The notes under the pieces are model-generated. The model saw only the letters and a program-made list of their open reading frames with translations. It was not told the origin of the DNA and did no database searches. A stretch of 64,000 nt of DNA from Patescibacteria group bacterium (lineage in GTDB: Bacteria; Patescibacteriota; Microgenomatia; UBA8517), in the NCBI GenBank assembly GCA_022868165.1, contig JALHYA010000017.1:11634-75633 (forward strand). Reading direction: 5' to 3'. Position 1 is the first letter of the stretch. Each line of letters begins with the position of its first letter. Shown in pieces: positions 23,829 to 61,070 of this stretch. The position numbers were made by a program, and so were the translations under genes.

Positions 23829-24811
23829 ATCAAACCCATTGACTTTTTGACCTCATCCAAAGTCCCTCGCGCAACAGCCCTGGCCCTTTTTGCCCCGTCT
23901 TCGAGCACTCTTTCTACATAAGAAGGGTCTTTTTCAAGAACTGCCCGCCTTTTTTGAATAGGCTCAATTTCCTTATAAATTGCCTGGGCAAGCTTTTCTT
24001 TGAGCTCGGAATATCTAATTCCCTCGCCAAGATACATCTTTTCGTATTTTTCTCTCTCCGCCCCTCCTTCAAAAAGCTCAACAAGTTCCAATAGCGTCGC
24101 CACGCCACCTTTTTCGGGCACTTTCTCCCCACGTCCGGAATCTGTCGGAGTTTTGGCCAGCTTCTCTTTGATGGCTTCCAGGCTGTCGGTTAGGTAAATC
24201 GAGCTTCCCTCAACTGTTTTGGCCATCTTCCCCTCTCCTGTTAATGACGGCACATACTCGCCCTCGGTTACGAATCTTGTCGGTTCCGGAAAGGATAGTC
24301 CATACTTCTCATTCATTTTTCTGGCAATTTCTCTGGTTATCTCAAGATGCGGTTCTTGGTCTATTCCGGTCGGCACAAGCGGAGCTTTATAAGCCAAAAT
24401 GTCGGCCGCCATAAGGATTGGATAGTTGAGAAGGCCAACATTTACGTTCTGGGGGTACTGTTTAACCTTCTCTTTGTAAGTGGGAAGGTGCTGCATGCGG
24501 GCTATTGACACGGCTGTTGAGAAAAGATAGGCCAACTCAACATGCTCGGGAACGTAAGATTGGATAAAAATCGTCGATTTTTCGGGGTCAAGGCCCGCGG
24601 AAAGATAGTCCATTACAACCTCCCTGGTGTTATTTTTGAGCTCCCTGGGGCTATAAGGCGTGGTAAGGGTGTGTAAATCGGCAACCATATAGAAAGTTTC
24701 ATAATCCGGATTATCTTGTAGGACCAGCATGCCCTTGACCGCCCCCAGATAATTACCCAGGTGTAGCCTTCCTGTAGCCCTAATGCCCGATAAAACTCGC
24801 TTTTTGGCCAT
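23825..24811 (-). CDS. trpS: tryptophan--tRNA ligase
   Basis: Class I HIGH-like GRLHLGNYLG, KMSKS-like KMAKT, about 330 aa. The start is Met at 24811 or 24829. Confidence 0.9.
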   Translation of the reverse strand: MAKKRVLSGIRATGRLHLGNYLGAVKGMLVLQDNPDYETFYMVADLHTLTTPYSPRELKNNTREVVMDYLSAGLDPEKSTIFIQSYVPEHVELAYLFSTAVSIARMQHLPTYKEKVKQYPQNVNVGLLNYPILMAADILAYKAPLVPTGIDQEPHLEITREIARKMNEKYGLSFPEPTRFVTEGEYVPSLTGEGKMAKTVEGSSIYLTDSLEAIKEKLAKTPTDSGRGEKVPEKGGVATLLELVELFEGGAEREKYEKMYLGEGIRYSELKEKLAQAIYKEIEPIQKRRAVLEKDPSYVERVLEDGAKRARAVARGTLDEVKKSMGLI

Positions 24812-24857
24812 ATATACGGATTCTACCATTATTGAGGCTAAAGAGGAAATTTACTAG

Positions 24858-24936
24858 TGGCTACGAGAGGATTCGCCGTGCAAAACTTAACCTTGAGAAG
24901 CACTATCGAAACCTCGAGTGGCTACGAGAGGATTCG
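24858..24936. repeat. 18-nt perfect direct repeat of a tRNA 3' end (tggctacgagaggattcg at 24858-24875 and 24919-24936)
   Basis: Read directly. The second copy is the T-loop/acceptor 3' end of the interrupted tRNA-like gene. The first copy lies 61 nt downstream, with its T-loop broken by about 34 nt. Confidence 0.9.
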
Positions 24937-25156
24937 AACCTCTGATCTTGCGCTTATAAGCGTAGCTTGCAAACCCTTCGGGTTTATAAGCGAAGCTTGT
25001 GTCGCGAAATATTGGTGCCAGCGACAGGACTCGAACCTGTGACGGCTCGCTTATGAAACGAGTGCTCTACCGCTGAGCTACGCTGGCATATTTCGCGTCA
25101 TGAAATCCCGCTCTTAGGCGATAGCCGCACCTCTTGGTGCACTGAGCTACGTAGCC
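24919..25156 (-). tRNA. interrupted tRNA-like gene hosting tRNA-Met (complex, possibly degenerate)
   Basis: The minus strand starts GGCTACG TA GCTC AG... at 25156 and ends ...AGAGG TTCGAAT CCTCT CGTAGCC A at 24919, giving a 7/7 complementary acceptor stem. The D-loop region is expanded. A complete tRNA-Met flanked by a 12-bp inverted repeat sits in the anticodon region. I could not build a clean anticodon stem. Confidence 0.45.
25013..25087 (-). tRNA. tRNA-Met (anticodon CAT), CCA encoded
   Basis: GCCAGCG TA GCTC AGCGGTA GAGC A CTCGT TTCATAA GCGAG CCGTC ACAGG TTCGAGT CCTGT CGCTGGC A CCA. Full cloverleaf built by hand. Confidence 0.9.
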
Positions 25157-25263
25157 GCGTCAATGCTTAGCTCGCCTAATTCAATTCTGTCCCTTTCGGG
25201 ACACGAATCTTTACCGCTCGCTAGCCTTTCCTTTCAAAATTGCTAGGCAATTTTGGTGTTTAC

Positions 25264-25282
25264 AAAATCGCAATGCGATTTT
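25264..25282. terminator. palindromic hairpin AAAATCGCA-A-TGCGATTTT (bidirectional terminator-like)
   Basis: 9-nt arms with T-tracts on both strands. Lies about 80 nt downstream of the 25359-25428 tRNA on the minus strand. Confidence 0.4.
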
Positions 25283-25358
25283 GAGAGGAGGAGCCGACTT
25301 GAAATAGCTAAGTCCCGACTAAATCGGGACGAAGCGCAAAAGTCGAGCTCCGACGATG

Positions 25359-25428
25359 TTGCGGGGCTAGGAGTTGAACCTAGCCTGGAAGATTATGAGC
25401 CTTCCGTGCAGCCGTACACTACCCCGCA
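25359..25428 (-). tRNA. tRNA with CAT anticodon (Met or Ile2-type), small D-loop, no encoded CCA
   Basis: TGCGGGG TA GTGT ACGGCT GCAC G GAAGG CTCATAA TCTTC CAGG CTAGG TTCAACT CCTAG CCCCGCA A. U1-A72 pair. No GGG/CCC initiator signature in the anticodon stem. Confidence 0.72.
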
Positions 25429-25454
25429 CGTAGATGAACGGGCTCTATTATACC

Positions 25455-25817
25455 TCAAAGGAACAGTTTCAGCCACTTTCTCCAGGTTGGGTCAGGCAGT
25501 TTTTCTTCCTCTTCCGGTAGCCTCGGAGCCAACTCTTCTAGGATTTTTGTTTCCGGCAAAACTATCACTATTTCGCCCTTTTTAGCCAGCCCCAACTTAT
25601 CCCGTAGCTGTTTTTCAATATATTCCTCGCTCTGGGCTTCTTTAAGTCTAGCTTCCAAGTCGCTATTTTCTCCCTGAAGCTTAGTAATATTTTCCTTTAT
25701 CTTATCTGTCCCCCTTTTTGCTTCAAGTCCTTTGAATACATTTCTAACCAAGGAAATACTCAAAAGCACTGCAAGTCCTAAAAGTAATAAATTCGTATAT
25801 TTTGCTAACTTTTGCAT
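25455..25817 (-). CDS. septum formation initiator (FtsB/DivIC family)
   Basis: 120 aa with an N-terminal TM helix, then a coiled coil ...ENITKLQGENSDLEARLKEAQSEEYIEKQLRDKLGLAKKGEIVI. Confidence 0.8.
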   Translation of the reverse strand: MQKLAKYTNLLLLGLAVLLSISLVRNVFKGLEAKRGTDKIKENITKLQGENSDLEARLKEAQSEEYIEKQLRDKLGLAKKGEIVIVLPETKILEELAPRLPEEEEKLPDPTWRKWLKLFL

Positions 25818-25879
25818 TGTAGCTTATAAGCACAGCTTGTGAGACTTTACTTTAAAAAGTAAACGTCTCATAATATGCG

Positions 25880-25907
25880 TTGACTCAGCAGAAATATGTG
25901 CTAGAAT
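25880..25907 (+). promoter_or_regulatory. sigma70-like promoter TTGACT-N16-TAGAAT for the recombinase gene
   Basis: Hexamers read directly. The -10 is bracketed by an 8-bp inverted repeat, GCAGAAAT (25888-25895) and ATTTCTGC (25923-25930). Confidence 0.55.
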
Positions 25908-25948
25908 ATAGGTCCTGCGAAAATTTCTGCTCCTAAGTTTATCTGATT

Positions 25949-26815
25949 ATGGCACAAGATACTCTAAAAAACCTGCTACCCAAGTTTGTCGAAAGCTTGA
26001 AAACCAAAGGTCGCTCCCCGTCGACCGTTCTCGCCTATCGGGCAGACCTTGAACAGCTTGTACAGTTTCTATTAAGCAAGAATAAGCCCCTTTCGGACCA
26101 GGTTAGACCCAGCGATTTGGAGGGCTTCCGTGACACCCTTTTGGCCGAAAAATACACTCCCAAAAGCGTATCCCGCAAGCTAAACGCCGTCAAAACTTTC
26201 TTTAGATGGCTGATTGCCGAGAATATTCTTACATCCGATCCTTCGGCTTCCGTAGCCCATCCCAAGATAGAAAGTTCTCTTCCCAAGTTTCTTTCCCAGC
26301 TGGAATATAGGGCTCTTCGTGATGTCGTCCGCGGGGATGTCAGAATAGCCGCTATTGTGGAGCTTATCTTGCAAACCGGAATGAGAATTTCCGAGGTTGC
26401 AAACCTTAAAATCGAAAATGTCAAAGAGAATGAAGCAAAAATTGAGGCTTACGCTACCCAGCCCGAGCGCACCGTTCCTCTAAACAAGCCGGCCAAAGAC
26501 GCTCTAAATGCTTATTTGGCAATCAGACCCGACAAAAACGGCTCGCCGTATGTGTTTGTAAGCAAAACCGGTCATCCGTTGGCAGTAAGAAATATAAGGG
26601 CCGCAATAGACAGATATATGCAAAAGGCAGAAGTTCCCGCCTATTCGGTTAATGATTTGAGAACTACTTTTATAGTCGAAAATCTTAAGGCCGGAGTTGA
26701 TTTGGTTCTTCTTTCCCAAGTAACGGGCCACAAAAGACTTTCGACAACCGAGCGTTATTTGGAGTTAGCCCAAGTCACCGAGCCCGGCAAGCGCCAAATC
26801 CTTCAGGAGCTTTAA
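25949..26815 (+). CDS. tyrosine recombinase (XerC/XerD-like integrase family)
   Basis: 288 aa. N-terminal SAM-like core-binding domain. Catalytic residues in TGMRISEV ... TGHKRLSTTERYLEL (R..HxxR..Y). Confidence 0.88.
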   Translation: MAQDTLKNLLPKFVESLKTKGRSPSTVLAYRADLEQLVQFLLSKNKPLSDQVRPSDLEGFRDTLLAEKYTPKSVSRKLNAVKTFFRWLIAENILTSDPSASVAHPKIESSLPKFLSQLEYRALRDVVRGDVRIAAIVELILQTGMRISEVANLKIENVKENEAKIEAYATQPERTVPLNKPAKDALNAYLAIRPDKNGSPYVFVSKTGHPLAVRNIRAAIDRYMQKAEVPAYSVNDLRTTFIVENLKAGVDLVLLSQVTGHKRLSTTERYLELAQVTEPGKRQILQEL

Positions 26816-26820
26816 AAGTT

Positions 26821-27019
26821 TGGTGGAGCCGCTTGGGACCGAACCAAGTACCTGTTGTTTATGATAGAGCTTCACTCTGACATGTCAGCAAAACCTCTGT
26901 GGAACGGGATGGGATCGAACCATCGACCTCATGTTTATAAGACATGTGCTCTAACCACTGAGCTACCGTTCCATTATTGCTGTCATAAGACAACCGCTCT
27001 ACCAATGAGCTACGGCTCC
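26821..27019 (-). tRNA. tRNA gene split in the anticodon loop by a ~130-nt insert (anticodon CAT or TAT depending on junction), CCA encoded
   Basis: The 5' part (27019->26990) reads GGAGCCG TA GCTC ATTGGTA GAGC G GTTGT. The 3' part (26858->26821) reads ACAAC AGGTA CTTGG TTCGGTC CCAAG CGGCTCC A CCA. The acceptor (7/7) and anticodon (5/5) stems are perfectly complementary across the insert. Confidence 0.72.
26900..26972 (-). tRNA. tRNA-Ile (anticodon TAT), located inside the split tRNA
   Basis: GGAACGG TA GCTC AGTGGTTA GAGC A CATGT CTTATAA ACATG AGGTC GATGG TTCGATC CCATC CCGTTCC A. Canonical 73-nt cloverleaf. Confidence 0.9.
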
Positions 27020-27056
27020 ATCGAGGCTATATTATATCAGAAAGAGGCTATTGAAG

Positions 27057-27908
27057 TTACTTTTTCTTCTTTTTATGATTCACGGCTCCTTCAATCTCCT
27101 CCCAATCTCTTACTTTTCGAATCTTCAGATTCTTTTCCCACATGGCTTTTAAGGCGGACATATCCACACCCATATTTTTGGCAAAACCCAAAAGCGCGAC
27201 TGTATCCTTGGGAAAACATTTGCCACCAAAACCCCGAATTGTTGTAACACTAAGGTGGCTCAACCCAATTCTGGGGTCAGCGGCAACCAGTTCCTTTACC
27301 TCGTCATATTTAATACCAAGGGCGGTACACAAGTCGTACATTTCATTCGCAAAAATGACCTTAGAAGCCAAAAGGGCATTGCTCATATATTTAACCATCT
27401 CTGCCGTGGTTGTATCCGTAATAAAAATTTTTGCTTTTGGTCCCAATAGGTCCCTATAAAGAGCAACCAATCTTTCCGAAACAGACTGGGAAAGGGCCCC
27501 TATTATTGTTCTGTCTGGGTGTAAAAAATCCCAAGGGCCATTGGCTTCAGTTAAAAATTCGGGGTTCATCGCAAAAAGCGTTTCCGGATACTTCTTTTTG
27601 AACGATACCGTTGTTCCGGGAACCACGGTGGATTTTATTGTGAGAATTTTATCTGTTTTCACTATTTTGGGTGCGATTCTATCAACAACCTCTTTGATCA
27701 CCGATAAATCGATCCCGCTGTTGTCGGAAAACATTGGAGTAGGAACACAAACAAATATAAATTCCGACTCGGATATTACTTTTTGAAGCGAAGCAGGACC
27801 TTTTTTATACTTATCCCACCAGAAAATTTCGTTTTCTTTGTTTCTAGCAAAACCTTCTCCGACGGCTTTCCCTACTATCCCCCAGCCGATAATTCCGATT
27901 TTAGCCAT
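27057..27908 (-). CDS. UDP-glucose/GDP-mannose dehydrogenase family protein, short form lacking the C-terminal nucleotide-sugar domain
   Basis: N-terminal Rossmann MAKIGIIGWGIVGKAVG. Catalytic Cys region GFGGKCFPKD. Ends after 283 aa with a KKKKK tail. Confidence 0.75.
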   Translation of the reverse strand: MAKIGIIGWGIVGKAVGEGFARNKENEIFWWDKYKKGPASLQKVISESEFIFVCVPTPMFSDNSGIDLSVIKEVVDRIAPKIVKTDKILTIKSTVVPGTTVSFKKKYPETLFAMNPEFLTEANGPWDFLHPDRTIIGALSQSVSERLVALYRDLLGPKAKIFITDTTTAEMVKYMSNALLASKVIFANEMYDLCTALGIKYDEVKELVAADPRIGLSHLSVTTIRGFGGKCFPKDTVALLGFAKNMGVDMSALKAMWEKNLKIRKVRDWEEIEGAVNHKKKKK

Positions 27909-35337: not shown

Positions 35338-35410
35338 CCATTCCCAAAGGACATGAAGGAAGATAAGCAAAGCTTGCGACTTAGTCTAAAGCAAAGCTTG
35401 CTGCTTCGCA
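35338..35410 (-). pseudogene. remnant of a CPBP protease 3' end with a ~24-nt tandem duplication
   Basis: 35338-35364 is 26/27 identical to 35627-35653, the 3' end of the intact CPBP gene. The minus-strand reading gives ...TKSQALLIFLHVLWEW versus TKNVFSSIFLHVLWEW, preceded by a stop and a duplicated unit sharing AAGCAAAGCTTGC. Confidence 0.55.
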
Positions 35411-35605: not shown

Positions 35606-36247
35606 TTATCTAAACAAAATAATGGGCCATTCCCAAAGAACATGAAGGAAGATTGAAGAGAAAACATTCTTTGTCCGGGCAAAAACAAAAGCCGAACCCA
35701 ATCCAAAAAGAGCAGTGATAAGTAGATTTACCATTGTTGCCGAAGCGCCCAACTGCAGAACAAAAATGTAAATCGGAACGTGTATTAGAACCCAAACAAG
35801 AGTTGTTATTACATTGGCGAGCCATTCATTTTTCAGAGCAAGCCACAACCTGTTAAACATATATCCCCTAAACGCAATCTCCTCACTCACGGCTGTTGCA
35901 AACGATATTCCCAAAGCCATAGGAAGCGTCTTGTCTCCAATATTTGCCGCAAAACTTAGGCCGTTGTGCTTAATAAAATTGATAATCAGCGCCTCCATCA
36001 CAAAAAACGAACCCAGGGCCAGAGAAAAATAAACGGAGGGGAAGAGGTTTTTGACTGTTATCCCCAAAGAATCCAAACCCAAGCCCTCTTTTTTGATAAT
36101 TACAAAAACCGGTATCAACCAAATAATGGGTTTTACAACCAACTCCTCTACTTCATCGGGTAGTTGTATTAAAAACCTGTAAAGTCCCCAGACTATCAAA
36201 AGATATGTTGCGTAAACCGTCGCTGTTTTTAAATAATTTTCTTTCAT
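35606..36247 (-). CDS. CPBP family intramembrane glutamic endopeptidase (CAAX protease/Abi family)
   Basis: 213 aa polytopic. Motif 1 SEEIAFRGY, later HVPIY and HVLWE His motifs. Confidence 0.85.
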   Translation of the reverse strand: MKENYLKTATVYATYLLIVWGLYRFLIQLPDEVEELVVKPIIWLIPVFVIIKKEGLGLDSLGITVKNLFPSVYFSLALGSFFVMEALIINFIKHNGLSFAANIGDKTLPMALGISFATAVSEEIAFRGYMFNRLWLALKNEWLANVITTLVWVLIHVPIYIFVLQLGASATMVNLLITALFGLGSAFVFARTKNVFSSIFLHVLWEWPIILFR

Positions 36248-36729
36248 TGCCCTTTCATTTTACATTCTTTATATGCTAGGCCGATGGCTTTGATAACCAT
36301 ATCTACTCTTTCTTTCGCCTCGGTGACACTCAGAGCATTCTTTTCGTTGGGAAACCAATGGAAAACCAAATTTCTGCAATTTTTCCAAGTGTCCCAAAGG
36401 GTATCCGCAAGCATGTTTGTCCCGGTAAAAGCGACCAGTTTGTCGTAGACGCTCTCGCTCCTGAAACTTTTTTCCAGAGAAGGATTTAAAGCTTTCCCGA
36501 TCCTAAAATGCTTTCCGTAGTAATCCTGGGGGGTGATAAACTCCAAATCCAAAAACAATTTTTTCAAAAATCCTTCGTAGGCTTTGGCTGCAGGAAAAAC
36601 CACAAAAGCATAGTCATGGAAATCCTCCTTGCCGTAATATGTTTCGGACAACAAAACCGCCTCATTTAGAAGCTTCTGAAGATCTTCTCCCAGGTAATTC
36701 CACCAGACCTCTTTCGACAGCTCACCCAT
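36244..36729 (-). CDS. hypothetical cytoplasmic helical protein with Rx4H (HEPN-like) motif
   Basis: 161 aa. NCRNLVFHW fits R-N-x3-H at about three-quarters of the length, as in HEPN domains. ATGA and TAATG overlaps with both neighbours. The family assignment rests on this one motif. Confidence 0.55.
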   Translation of the reverse strand: MGELSKEVWWNYLGEDLQKLLNEAVLLSETYYGKEDFHDYAFVVFPAAKAYEGFLKKLFLDLEFITPQDYYGKHFRIGKALNPSLEKSFRSESVYDKLVAFTGTNMLADTLWDTWKNCRNLVFHWFPNEKNALSVTEAKERVDMVIKAIGLAYKECKMKGQ

Positions 36730-37397
36730 TATTTTATTCCCAAAGTAACCGAAATGGTCAATTTTCCGCTGCTTTCGGCAAGTCCAACAAATCCGCTCGT
36801 TTTGTCCTTCTCAAAAGAAATAGTCTGCATTGCCTCTTGAGCAAGCTCGTTGTCTATCTTCCAACCACCAGCCGTAAGTTTATCTTTATAGAATAATTTT
36901 ACTTGGGTCACCGAGTCCGTCGTTTCCCAAACGACAGAAATTCCCTTGCTGTCTTCTCCGGTGGTTGTCCAAGAGGATGTTAGTTTGGCTCCGGGATAAA
37001 TCGGAAAATCGCTTGGGAAACCATCCGGCAGTTTTCCTTCTGCCGAGTAGGAAAACTGTCCTCCCTTACCGTCGAAGCTAATCTTTTTGCCGTCATTCTC
37101 CACCTTGACGTTTTCTCCTGCTGTCTTGGAAAGGAAAAGTGAGAGAAATTTTGAACTGATTTTCCCCCCTAAGCTTCTCCACAAAACCCGGGCCGCAAAT
37201 CCAACCAAAACCAAAACGGCAAGAACCGATAAGAGAATAATCAGTAGCTTGTTAGACTTTTTCTTGGGCTCTTCCTTTTCTTCTTTTTTATCTTCCAGTT
37301 TATCTTCCAAAAGAAACTCACCTCCTACCAAAAAACAATAGTCCAATAATATTATCATGCGGGGTTTTAAGTCAAACCCCGAAAGCCTGTATGACAT
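36729..37397 (-). CDS. membrane-anchored extracytoplasmic protein, function unknown
   Basis: 222 aa. Charged KE-rich N-terminus, one TM helix (LLIILLSVLAVLVLVGFAA), and a beta-rich C-terminal domain (FPIYPGAKL...VKLFYKDKLTAGGWKI). Confidence 0.6.
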   Translation of the reverse strand: MSYRLSGFDLKPRMIILLDYCFLVGGEFLLEDKLEDKKEEKEEPKKKSNKLLIILLSVLAVLVLVGFAARVLWRSLGGKISSKFLSLFLSKTAGENVKVENDGKKISFDGKGGQFSYSAEGKLPDGFPSDFPIYPGAKLTSSWTTTGEDSKGISVVWETTDSVTQVKLFYKDKLTAGGWKIDNELAQEAMQTISFEKDKTSGFVGLAESSGKLTISVTLGIK

Positions 37398-37508
37398 CCT
37401 CCCCGCTTTGAAAAGCGGGGTTTCCTCTAAAGGAGAATGACATATCAGCGTTCAATTCATCCCCTCGACTACGCTCGGGGTTTTCTTGAATGCTGATATA
37501 ATTCTCAT
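37398..37508 (+). promoter_or_regulatory. conserved multi-hairpin element upstream of PBP gene 1 (copy 1)
   Basis: Hairpin CCCCGCTT-TGAA-AAGCGGGG (37401-37420). Box GTTCAATTCATCC (37450-37462). Variable hairpin. Box TCTTGAAT (37484-37491). TGaTATAAT (37494-37502) lies 6 nt from the ATG. A long helix pairs GAGAAT..ATATCAGCGTTCAA with TTGAATGCTGATAT.ATTCTC. Confidence 0.6.
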
Positions 37509-60617: not shown

Positions 60618-61070
60618 ATGTTGGAAAGAGAAACCTGTGCGTTGGCATCCGAAGAAGCATTGACAAGATCCTTGGAAAGTGCACGGTCATGGAGTAAAAA
60701 CGAGCTTGGTAGATATGTCCGAGGTGTTGTTTGTAAATTTAATTACGACATTTTCAGGTTTATCATTGATAATGAGCAAATGTCTGATATGTGTCTTGAT
60801 CCCAAAGAGGAAGGCTTGATTCGAGTTTCTCAAAAACAGCTGGATTTCATAAAACGACGACAAGAGGCTTTCAGCGGGATGATAGGGGCGGCTGAGGTTG
60901 ACCCTGAATCGATTTTTGTACACGAAATCACAGAGTTTATTGTGGACATTGATACCTCGGTATACCTACAAAATTGTGTACCCTTAACGAGATTTCCTCA
61001 TGATGTTGCCTGTATTGTAGAAAACGCCAACAGGAAAGAAAGAGGACTAAAACCCTGGTTTCACTACTAA
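60618..61070 (+). CDS. hypothetical protein (150 aa)
   Basis: Longest ORF in this interval, with a non-ATG start in the track. No motif recognised. Confidence 0.4.
   Translation: MLERETCALASEEALTRSLESARSWSKNELGRYVRGVVCKFNYDIFRFIIDNEQMSDMCLDPKEEGLIRVSQKQLDFIKRRQEAFSGMIGAAEVDPESIFVHEITEFIVDIDTSVYLQNCVPLTRFPHDVACIVENANRKERGLKPWFHY

Follow-up and report, generated by a model that had tools for sequence, protein, structure and literature searches.

Transfer RNA (tRNA) genes have reportedly been recognized by Campbell as att sites of tyrosine integrases, and the sublocation classes of tRNA-gene integration, the anticodon loop included, are said to have been set out by Williams in 2002. Phages and genomic islands that integrate at the anticodon-loop sublocation bring part of a tRNA with them, by which the gene is repaired. 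This article concerns a stretch of 64,000 nucleotides (nt) from a Patescibacteria group bacterium (contig JALHYA010000017.1, positions 11,634 to 75,633), referred to in its entirety as the window, in which a complete tRNA-Ile(UAU) gene stands inside the anticodon loop of another tRNA-Ile(UAU) gene, a site designated here as locus A. This locus is probably a resident tRNA-Ile(UAU) gene that was struck by a small, promoterless, non-autonomous mobile DNA cassette with a tRNA gene as its cargo. Full-text literature searches turned up neither a tRNA gene nested in another nor miniature cassettes that carry tRNAs, in agreement with the preliminary description of this DNA, which knew of no tRNA-within-tRNA arrangement.

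Other interruptions of tRNA genes are well documented. Group I introns occupy tRNA anticodon loops in Patescibacteria and Cyanobacteria (PMC13011429), and the disrupted tRNAs of archaea comprise those with bulge-helix-bulge introns, some of which host C/D-box RNAs, as well as split and tri-split tRNAs (PMC4390854, PMC4090602).

At locus A, two halves of an outer tRNA-Ile(UAU) gene, read on the minus strand from 27019 to 26985 and from 26860 to 26821, are parted by 124 nt (26984-26861). The features of the locus are given below, where corresponding loci of relatives are denoted by L numbers and a vertical bar marks a junction.

27031 to 27039, minus strand: TGATATAAT, a putative extended -10 promoter box 11 nt upstream of the outer tRNA, read from the sequence; the same box stands before un-nested tRNA-Ile genes of relatives.
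26985 to 27019, minus strand: 5' half of the outer tRNA-Ile(UAU), with the acceptor 5' strand, D arm, anticodon-stem 5' strand and loop CTTAT (positions 32-36); identical to the uninterrupted gene in L054 (2808-2882), L136, L137, L139 and L140.
26861 to 26984, minus strand: 124-nt insertion (tRNA cassette); in BLAST against L054 the block finds no match, and the flanking alignments overlap by 2 nt where the site is empty.
26973 to 26984, minus strand: left end of the cassette, GAC and left arm AGCAATAAT, with pairing between its CAGCAA and the TTGCTG in the right arm; an arm preceded by YAT|GAC is seen again in L007, L069, L087, L096, L116, L143 and the second nested locus of the window (locus B).
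26900 to 26972, minus strand: inner, complete tRNA-Ile(UAU) without an encoded CCA, presumably the working gene (ARAGORN, Rfam RF00005).
26887 to 26899, minus strand: discriminator-adjacent C and right arm AGAGGTTTTGCT, the 3' part of which pairs with the left arm (sequence and family comparison).
26861 to 26886, minus strand: 3' module of the cassette GACATGTCAGAGTGAAGCTCTATCAT, consisting of a GACATRT box and a hairpin, in which ATG at the base pairs with the terminal CAT (covariance model R1, 39.3 bits, E = 1.6e-7).
26821 to 26860, minus strand: 3' half of the outer tRNA-Ile(UAU), comprising loop AA, the 3' strand of the anticodon stem, the variable loop, the T arm (TTCGGTC, G58 being position 26839), the 3' strand of the acceptor stem, discriminator A and CCA; A58->G is the only difference from L054 and the other uninterrupted copies.

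The outer 5' half reads GGAGCCG TA GCTC ATTGGTA GAGC G GTTGT CTTAT and the 3' half AA ACAAC AGGTA CTTGG TTCGGTC CCAAG CGGCTCC A CCA, with an acceptor stem paired at 7/7 and an anticodon stem paired at 5/5 positions. The inner gene is identified by ARAGORN as tRNA-Ile(tat) at 26899-26972 on the minus strand and by the Rfam tRNA model with 76.5 bits. ARAGORN still reported the inner gene alone at locus A when introns of 0-300 nt were allowed, and it called the outer gene tRNA-Ile(tat) once the insert was deleted in silico. The statement of the preliminary description that two halves of one tRNA gene surround a complete tRNA-Ile(UAU) is thus borne out by sequence, coordinates, pairing and both programs; its gap of about 130 nt exists and is refined to 124 nt, and the edge heptamers CTTATGA and ATCATAA, as well as G58, are all present. 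Since the dinucleotide AT is found at both junctions, the register of the insert is ambiguous by these two bases; the insert entered the anticodon loop after T36 and before A37 (CTTAT|AA). In the minimum free energy fold of 202 nt (-68.3 kcal/mol, z = -3.5), the outer acceptor stem is closed round the inner cloverleaf, and TTATGA(C)/(G)TCATAA is able to lengthen the outer anticodon stem. The insert contains no open reading frame (ORF); apart from the 73 nt of the inner tRNA, about 50 nt are non-tRNA sequence of family-specific architecture, including the terminal hairpin GACATGTCAG...CTGTCAT. The TGATATAAT box is likely, from its sequence and position, to serve as the promoter for the whole nested transcript.

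The empty site is preserved in close relatives. L054, a JGI contig with a tryptophanyl-tRNA synthetase (TrpRS) 96% identical and DNA 93-97% identical to that of the window, aligns on both sides of locus A without window positions 26861-26984 and has a plain tRNA-Ile(UAU) gene at the site (GGAGCCGTAGCTCATTGGTAGAGCGGTTGTCTTATAAACAACAGGTACTTGGTTCGATCCCAAGCGGCTCCACCA, 70.8 bits as a tRNA). The uninterrupted outer gene GGAGCCGTAGCTCATTGGTAGAGCGGTTGTCTTATAAACAACAGGTACTTGGTTCGATCCCAAGCGGCTCCA occurs in six contigs, L054 (= L135), L136, L137, L139 and L140, which come from other samples and have flanks 91-98% identical, and the window gene differs from these copies by the 124-nt insertion and the A58->G change in the T loop, and by nothing else. 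Because the joined halves, G58 aside, match the uninterrupted orthologous tRNA-Ile of close relatives, they can be taken as a real tRNA gene, chance being excluded. Additionally, because the window outer gene equals the gene of the relatives plus the insertion and one substitution, the insertion is judged by this comparison to be recent, lineage-specific and made at the level of DNA. Position 58 of the T loop is near-universally conserved; all uninterrupted copies carry A58, so that G58 is derived. The comparison of orthologous loci, which the preliminary description had set as a test, thus returned an uninterrupted outer tRNA in relatives, and its remark on G58 was apt in that this base is a derived change. 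The inner tRNA is nearest to the tRNA-Ile of L111, L002 and L004 (89-91%), and the outer one is nearest to those of L054, L025 and L079; by this measure the cargo tRNA is foreign and not a copy of the outer gene.

Nested loci were sought by scanning for tRNA genes that have matching acceptor strands and a T arm around them, followed by inspection of the flanks, and about 17 insertions were found in Microgenomates. Locus A is not the only case; at a distance of 1.7 kb, the window holds a second nested tRNA (Met in Met), locus B. The further nested loci are the following.

Nested tRNA-Ile(UAU) loci besides locus A: L006 (= L083, L084), L007 (= L088), L082, L096, L117 and L122.
Nested tRNA-Met(CAU) loci: window 25156-24919 (locus B), L007, L069, L087, L092, L100, L109, L116 and L143.

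The TrpRS sequences of the host genomes are 60-88% identical, and the architecture is seen in more than 15 independent assemblies (GTDB genomes, JGI, ENA, Logan). The plan common to these elements is [...YAT], GAC, a left arm of 7-10 nt, the tRNA, a complementary right arm, GACAT(G/A)T, a hairpin ending in (C/T)AT, and [AA...]. The target is always YAT|AA of a tRNA with the matching anticodon, Ile in Ile and Met in Met, in every readable case; the flank on the left reads TTAT or TCAT, and the elements end on the right in TCAT, TTAT or CTAT. Orientation is fixed, and re-insertion at the regenerated YAT| yields tandem arrays, while insertion into the anticodon loop of the new cargo yields nested ones. 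Nesting reaches three levels in L069 (Met in Met in Met), and a tRNA-less mini-element stands in tandem with a cassette in L116, L069 and locus B.

The insert had been called featureless in the preliminary description, a view that does not hold, as its architecture is conserved and covarying over the roughly 17 insertions. In the family alignment, 97.2% of the cells of the terminal hairpin are paired, with compensatory changes at 6/9 pairs; none of 500 shuffles reached the observed value, and slid controls were at most 46% paired. The mismatch at stem position 4 is conserved. Because G-T pairs occur in the hairpin and A-C pairs do not, the alignment suggests that one particular strand of the hairpin folds. 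The G/A base of the box covaries with the terminal C/T in 12/12 parsed elements, and the arms show compensatory changes of their own (GCAAAAT/ATTTTGC, GCGAAAT/ATTTCGC, ACAAAAT/ATTTTGT). When the R1 covariance model was run over 1.34 Mb of loci, each match with E < 1e-3 sat just 3' of a tRNA-Ile or tRNA-Met at a nested locus; in the window, one weak and unconvincing match beyond locus A was obtained (60742-60777, E = 0.46). One match directly follows the outer tRNA of L006, and because of this module copy the L006 outer gene would itself once have been cargo. The 28-nt module GACATGTCAGGTTCGMAGAATCTGTCAT is shared by L007, L116 and L117, where it stands in different tRNA genes and the TrpRS sequences are 71-82% identical, and the cargo and arms of L143 and L069 are nearly identical. 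If the ends of an element were joined, the palindrome (C)TGTC-AT-GACA(G) would be formed, a perfect 14-mer in L096 (TTTGTCATGACAAA). Restriction-site-like palindromes (ACATGT, TCATGA) were also considered and dropped, being confined to the tRNA-Ile subfamily. The 3' module was likewise examined as an outward sigma-70 promoter (CTGACA-16-TATCAT, 10/12 matches), yet this reading was not relied on because the distance from the GACA box to the end of the element is not constant in the family (16 to 21 nt).

The outer genes range from intact (L087, L096) or altered by one substitution (locus A) to badly decayed, with deletions in the anticodon stem (L116, L122), extra insertions of 20-30 nt (locus B, L007) or loss of the 5' half (L078). 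On account of this range, the outer genes appear to be replaced and not spliced. No tRNA interrupted by a lone tRNA-less small element was present in the sample, in which the other interruptions were group I introns in tRNA-fMet and nothing else. Decay of the outer genes, matched anticodons and the lack of lone tRNA-less interruptions are what would be expected if insertion is fatal to the target gene and a cassette can persist only by bringing a substitute.

The course of events at such a locus may be pictured as follows. Insertion at CTTAT|AA splits the resident gene and would inactivate it, and the cell would survive because the anticodon of the cargo is that of the gene destroyed. The cargo would be transcribed from the resident promoter TGATATAAT and released from the transcript by RNase P and 3' processing (trimming), while the outer halves would be left as dead RNA and dead DNA, to decay over time. 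Repeated rounds would produce tandem and nested ("Russian-doll") arrays and a turnover of the tRNA-Ile and tRNA-Met genes of the clade. A trans-acting enzyme would probably recognize the folded 3' hairpin on one strand and join the element at YAT|AA; it may be a single-strand (HUH-type) transposase or an enzyme performing an integron-like tyrosine recombinase reaction. The palindrome of the joined ends would fit a recombinase with crossover at AT, and the TYAT flank with the TYAT right end would equally fit an IS200/IS605-like single-strand mechanism.

Several observations weigh against the insertion of a mobile cassette. That the cargo is expressed and processed and that the outer halves do not function is inferred, and the lone G58 substitution is weak evidence of decay at locus A. 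No full-length identical copies at different sites were seen and no circular or excised form was observed, so that mobility rests on presence or absence and on recurrence. Among the 50 window ORFs, no transposase or dedicated recombinase was found beyond a conserved Xer-like gene, and a tblastn search of the 1.34 Mb of loci with two approximate IS200/IS608 TnpA queries gave nothing below E = 3. The conserved arms and hairpin could serve RNA processing instead of DNA mobility. Moreover, the sample is skewed to one syntenic region (tRNA-Ile ... tRNA-Met, TrpRS), which limits what may be concluded about target range.

Among the other explanations, the one that survives best dispenses with a mobile element and invokes recombination between tRNA genes, illegitimate or homologous, which might follow the uptake of DNA from relatives and proceed either through microhomology of CTTATAA with -10-like boxes or with the outer halves as homology arms, in a gene conversion described as "homing without an endonuclease". 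Such an origin would suit the inner 3' flank, which resembles the native flank of the un-nested tRNA-Ile in L004 (TTGCTTTTTGACATGTAGCC) and, similarly, in L002, and a junction that shares AT as microhomology and no more; it would also suit L143, whose outer gene is a mosaic with 5' and 3' halves from different tRNAs, and L078, which looks recombination-resolved, and G58 could have been co-converted from a decayed donor. Recombination of this kind is nevertheless unlikely, as the insertions share the breakpoints YAT|GAC and YAT|AA, keep the same order of parts and the covarying terminal hairpin throughout, include the tandem insertions at a regenerated YAT|, and have tRNA-less relatives inserted at TAT|AA of promoters. 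In the window, additionally, the outer halves beside the junction are identical to the empty allele, with no conversion tract visible.

The preliminary description had left three readings side by side, of which the gene killed by a tRNA-carrying insertion is supported, while a new kind of intron and a split tRNA are not, in view of the empty sites and the decay of older outer genes. If either of the latter applied, the precursor would be cut, for example by RNase P and RNase Z, the halves would be ligated or work as two pieces, and both tRNAs would be functional. The perfectly complementary outer stems of locus A, L087 and L096, the potential of TTATGA(C)/(G)TCATAA to lengthen the anticodon stem, an arm helix that would keep the halves together and the abundance of tRNA introns in Patescibacteria (PMC13011429) would all accord with processing. 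Against it stands the uninterrupted gene at 91-98% identity, because of which the insert must be regarded as recent and dispensable; older outer genes carry stem deletions and extra insertions or have lost a half, G58 is derived, and tRNA-less versions never interrupt a tRNA alone, as expected if there is no excision. No RtcB-type ligase or splicing endonuclease (EndA) was found among the 50 ORFs scanned in the 64 kb. Rfam cmscan of the whole window at the gathering threshold, and of 24700-27200 at E <= 5, returned tRNA matches only, with no group I core (P3-P9, RF00028) or other ribozyme, and inspection of the junctions and the predicted fold revealed no bulge-helix-bulge motif of two 3-nt bulges parted by a 4-bp helix, the 5' loop CTTA being unable to pair with the bases before the 3' junction; on both points the preliminary description was right. 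On balance, an intron or split tRNA is highly improbable.

The comparison with described interruptions leads in the same direction. Group I introns share with the cassette the phylum and the tRNA loop, but the cassette lacks a ribozyme core and the outer gene is not conserved; a group I intron was ruled out on the missing core, the length of 124 nt, where about 200 nt or more would be required, and the three possible registers, which end in C, A or T and never in the terminal G (omega-G) of such introns. The disrupted tRNAs of archaea are similar in that a functional small RNA may lie inside a tRNA interruption and in that some outer genes bear several interruptions, whereas locus A has a bacterial host, no bulge-helix-bulge, no sign of a splicing endonuclease and decay in place of conserved processing. 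As for an assembly chimera of reads from two tRNA-Ile genes, conserved blocks among tRNA genes can mislead assemblers and the insert allele is known from one other record only (Logan contig of run SRR19116065, possibly the same reads), but such an error is barely conceivable given that no long run of identical bases is common to the inner and outer genes at the junctions, that the non-tRNA part of the insert has the architecture of a family seen in independent assemblies, and that the two assemblies of the insert allele are identical over 6.9 kb, both nested loci included.

With a mobile cassette as the preferred explanation, the known mobile systems can be compared. The integrative elements of tRNA genes are alike in that DNA is inserted into the 7-nt anticodon loop, a tRNA of the same identity is brought and a tyrosine-recombinase gene lies beside the site; unlike them, the cassette of 124 nt encodes no protein, carries a whole tRNA and not a 3' segment, and leaves two flanking halves without an att direct repeat beyond AT, and the neighbouring recombinase lies outside the insert and is present at empty sites too. 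That gene is located as follows.

25949 to 26815, plus strand: gene for a tyrosine recombinase of the Xer family, which converges on the outer tRNA and stops 6 nt short of the 3' end of that tRNA (Pfam Phage_integrase and SAM-like domains).

Integron cassettes provide a second comparison. In both, promoterless cargo would be read from a resident promoter, stacking would proceed by re-insertion at a regenerated site, an imperfect 3' hairpin has a conserved internal mismatch with crossover at the hairpin base, and a gene of the Xer family stands by the hot spot. The tRNA cassettes differ in their cargo and in their target, the anticodon loop of an isoacceptor, so that arrays are nested as well as tandem; they lack the R'/R'' cores (GTTRRRY; RYYYAAC), their modules ending in AT(G/A)...(C/T)AT, the orientation of the gene is different, and the recombinase scores 56.6 bits against the integron integrase model TIGR02249, with a cut-off of 265. 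The likeness in cargo, hairpin and stacking is an analogy of function and no evidence of membership.

The palindrome-associated transposable elements (PATEs) of the IS200/IS605 group and the REP/RAYT system resemble the cassettes in being small, non-autonomous, hairpin-bearing and fixed in orientation. Hairpins with G-T and without A-C pairs are a further likeness, and the cassettes may also resemble these elements in the lack of clear terminal inverted repeats and target duplication and in insertion 3' of TYAT with a similar tetranucleotide at the right end. The differences are that the hairpin of the cassette lies directly at the cleavage point and not some 10-19 nt away, that the cargo is a tRNA, that the short-hairpin module occurs only by tRNA-Ile or tRNA-Met in the 1.34 Mb and not genome-wide, and that no Y1 transposase match was obtained there with the approximate queries. 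The cassette ends accord equally well with the IS200/IS605 rule and with a 2-bp duplication of AT plus short inverted repeats, GACA/TGTC. Regarding features of miniature inverted-repeat transposable elements of DDE transposons, an AT duplication is possible, and the inverted repeats are good in L096 (6 bp) and poor in the tRNA-Met cassettes. A TA target-site duplication of the Tc1/IS630 type was ruled out by the junction sequences, and two exact-pattern scans of IMG/VR for a viral or plasmid origin gave no match.

A bolder possibility, to be entertained tentatively and on balance doubtful, is that these elements form a new class of mobile cassettes, with promoterless tRNA cargo and a terminal hairpin as recombination site. 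A host recombinase, conceivably the Xer-family enzyme encoded beside tRNA-Ile(UAU), would insert them into the anticodon loop of genes with the same anticodon, as an integron-like platform that would continually replace essential single-copy tRNA genes and spread alleles horizontally among bacteria of the candidate phyla radiation (CPR). The preferred explanation, for its part, bears on gene essentiality, as a selfish insertion into an essential, probably single-copy tRNA gene should kill the cell, an outcome that the cassette would avoid by bringing a working copy. The reading of a gene killed by a tRNA-carrying insertion extends to a whole family of recurring cassettes. Among closely related Microgenomates, tRNA-Ile(UAU) and tRNA-Met shift fast in sequence, and the cassettes would offer a route for the horizontal spread of alleles. 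For annotation, tRNA finders give the inner gene only, intron-aware pipelines could miscall the outer gene as intron-containing, and dead outer halves might pass for split tRNAs. Were an enzyme found, recombinase or single-strand transposase, that targets YAT|AA through the folded hairpin, a compact sequence-specific DNA insertion system would be at hand, and the nested loci constitute a natural experiment on RNase P and 3' processing of a tRNA embedded in a folded tRNA.

Locus A is flanked by genes for a truncated UDP-glucose dehydrogenase, a VirD4-like ATPase, the tyrosine recombinase, DivIC, TrpRS, FtsH and a 5'-3' exonuclease. Comparison of TrpRS places the window in Microgenomates (CPR), near Woesebacteria and Blackburnbacteria, with at most 70% identity in GTDB. 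The order dehydrogenase, tRNA-Ile(UAU), convergent Xer-like recombinase, DivIC, tRNA-fMet, tRNA-Met and TrpRS is conserved in many relatives, and an Xer-family gene was found within 2 kb of tRNA-Ile(UAU) in 48/48 loci examined. In comparison with NCBIfam, the window recombinase is XerC/XerD/XerA-like, under the equivalog cut-offs. Because the gene is found at sites with and without inserts alike and its scores are those of a generic Xer, the Xer-like protein is, as the inserting enzyme, only a lead. The possibility that the recombinase belongs to an island that bears the insert was ruled out, the gene being Xer-like and conserved at this place in every relative with or without the insert. Across loci, the Xer-family protein is 65-96% identical in amino acids, its gene is convergent to tRNA-Ile(UAU) at each locus examined, and the gap to tRNA-Ile(UAU) varies from 6 to about 1900 nt; this variable gap may hold debris of older cassettes.

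Locus B and a tRNA-less relative of the cassettes are located in the window as follows.

24919 to 25156 (with flanks, 24849-25258), minus strand: second nested locus, a decayed outer tRNA-Met(CAU) cut at TTCAT|AA, 1.7 kb from locus A.
37393 to 37499, plus strand: tRNA-less cassette relative, GACAT...GACATATCAG...GCTGATAT, at TAT|AAT of the -10 box before a penicillin-binding-protein gene.

The outer gene of locus B has an acceptor stem GGCTACG/CGTAGCC paired at 7/7 positions, a D loop enlarged by an insertion of about 26 nt, and damage in the anticodon stem. Its first insert consists of GAC, the left arm GCGAAATAT, an inner tRNA-Met (25087-25013), the right arm ATATTTCGC and the module GACACAAGCTTCGCTTAT, and the second is the short tRNA-less element, with its end at 24956. 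The cassette is 88% identical over 106 nt to that of L087, and the outer 5' half is the same as in L143, where the D-loop insertion is absent. Close relatives have, at this position, 96 nt with a different plain tRNA-Met. The final 19 nt or so of the outer tRNA-Met (GAATCCTCTCGTAGCCACT) are duplicated about 50 nt apart (approximately 24868-24887 and 24919-24938, minus strand), and a degenerate copy of this tail occurs in L054 (AAATCCTCTCAGC); the duplicated tail may be the relic of a still older layer of replacement.

The element at 37393-37499 has the same ends and box as the cassettes, with two GC-rich terminator-like hairpins in the place of the tRNA, and its right end together with the flank rebuilds TGATATAAT. 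It is 88% identical over 76 nt to L006 3111-3186, a segment inside a tRNA-Ile anticodon loop. The element is present in the close strains L145 and L146 and absent in the more distant L147, where the site reads GATTAT|ACT. Beside it lies a gene pair on the minus strand, 36244-36729 and 36729-37310, with homologues in PF27226 (AF_1845) and a weak HEPN RnaseLS match; the second gene encodes 193 amino acids, the 222-amino-acid ORF at 36729-37397 being an overextension, and the pair may be a toxin-antitoxin or defence pair.

The tRNA-fMet gene of the window (25428-25358, minus strand) is uninterrupted, and in relatives the anticodon loop of tRNA-fMet carries insertions of about 190-265 nt with group I-like blocks, at the following loci.

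tRNA-fMet genes with group I-like insertions: L005 1288-1622, L044 4843-5100, L057, L060, L069, L082, L092, L097, L100, L107 and L121.

The window gene has an unusual D arm, GTGT ACGGCT GCAC; it went unreported in the whole-window Rfam scan at the gathering threshold and scored 47.8 bits when a short region was searched. Just downstream of it, the stretch 25160-25357 (minus strand), ATCGTCGGAGCTCGACTTT...AGTCGGCTCCTCCTCTC with further hairpins, forms several hairpins on folding and had no Rfam match at E <= 5. It is conserved in L054 (4403-4500) and partly in L017 (2001-2080), and it may be an uncharacterized small RNA or processing element.

A repeated hairpin motif, (A)CAAGC-NNN-GCTTAT followed by AA, has 16 matches with at most one mismatch, against 4.5 expected. 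Copies in the window are the following.

24956 to 24968, minus strand: (A)CAAGC-NNN-GCTTAT.
24986 to 24998, minus strand: (A)CAAGC-NNN-GCTTAT.
25826 to 25838, minus strand: (A)CAAGC-NNN-GCTTAT.
35363 to 35375, minus strand: (A)CAAGC-NNN-GCTTAT; a further copy lies near 35395.

This motif acts as the 3' module of some tRNA-Met cassettes (locus B, L069) and is also found solitary just upstream of start codons, for example that of DivIC; at the DivIC site of L054, a 52-nt insertion is flanked by two copies of the motif.

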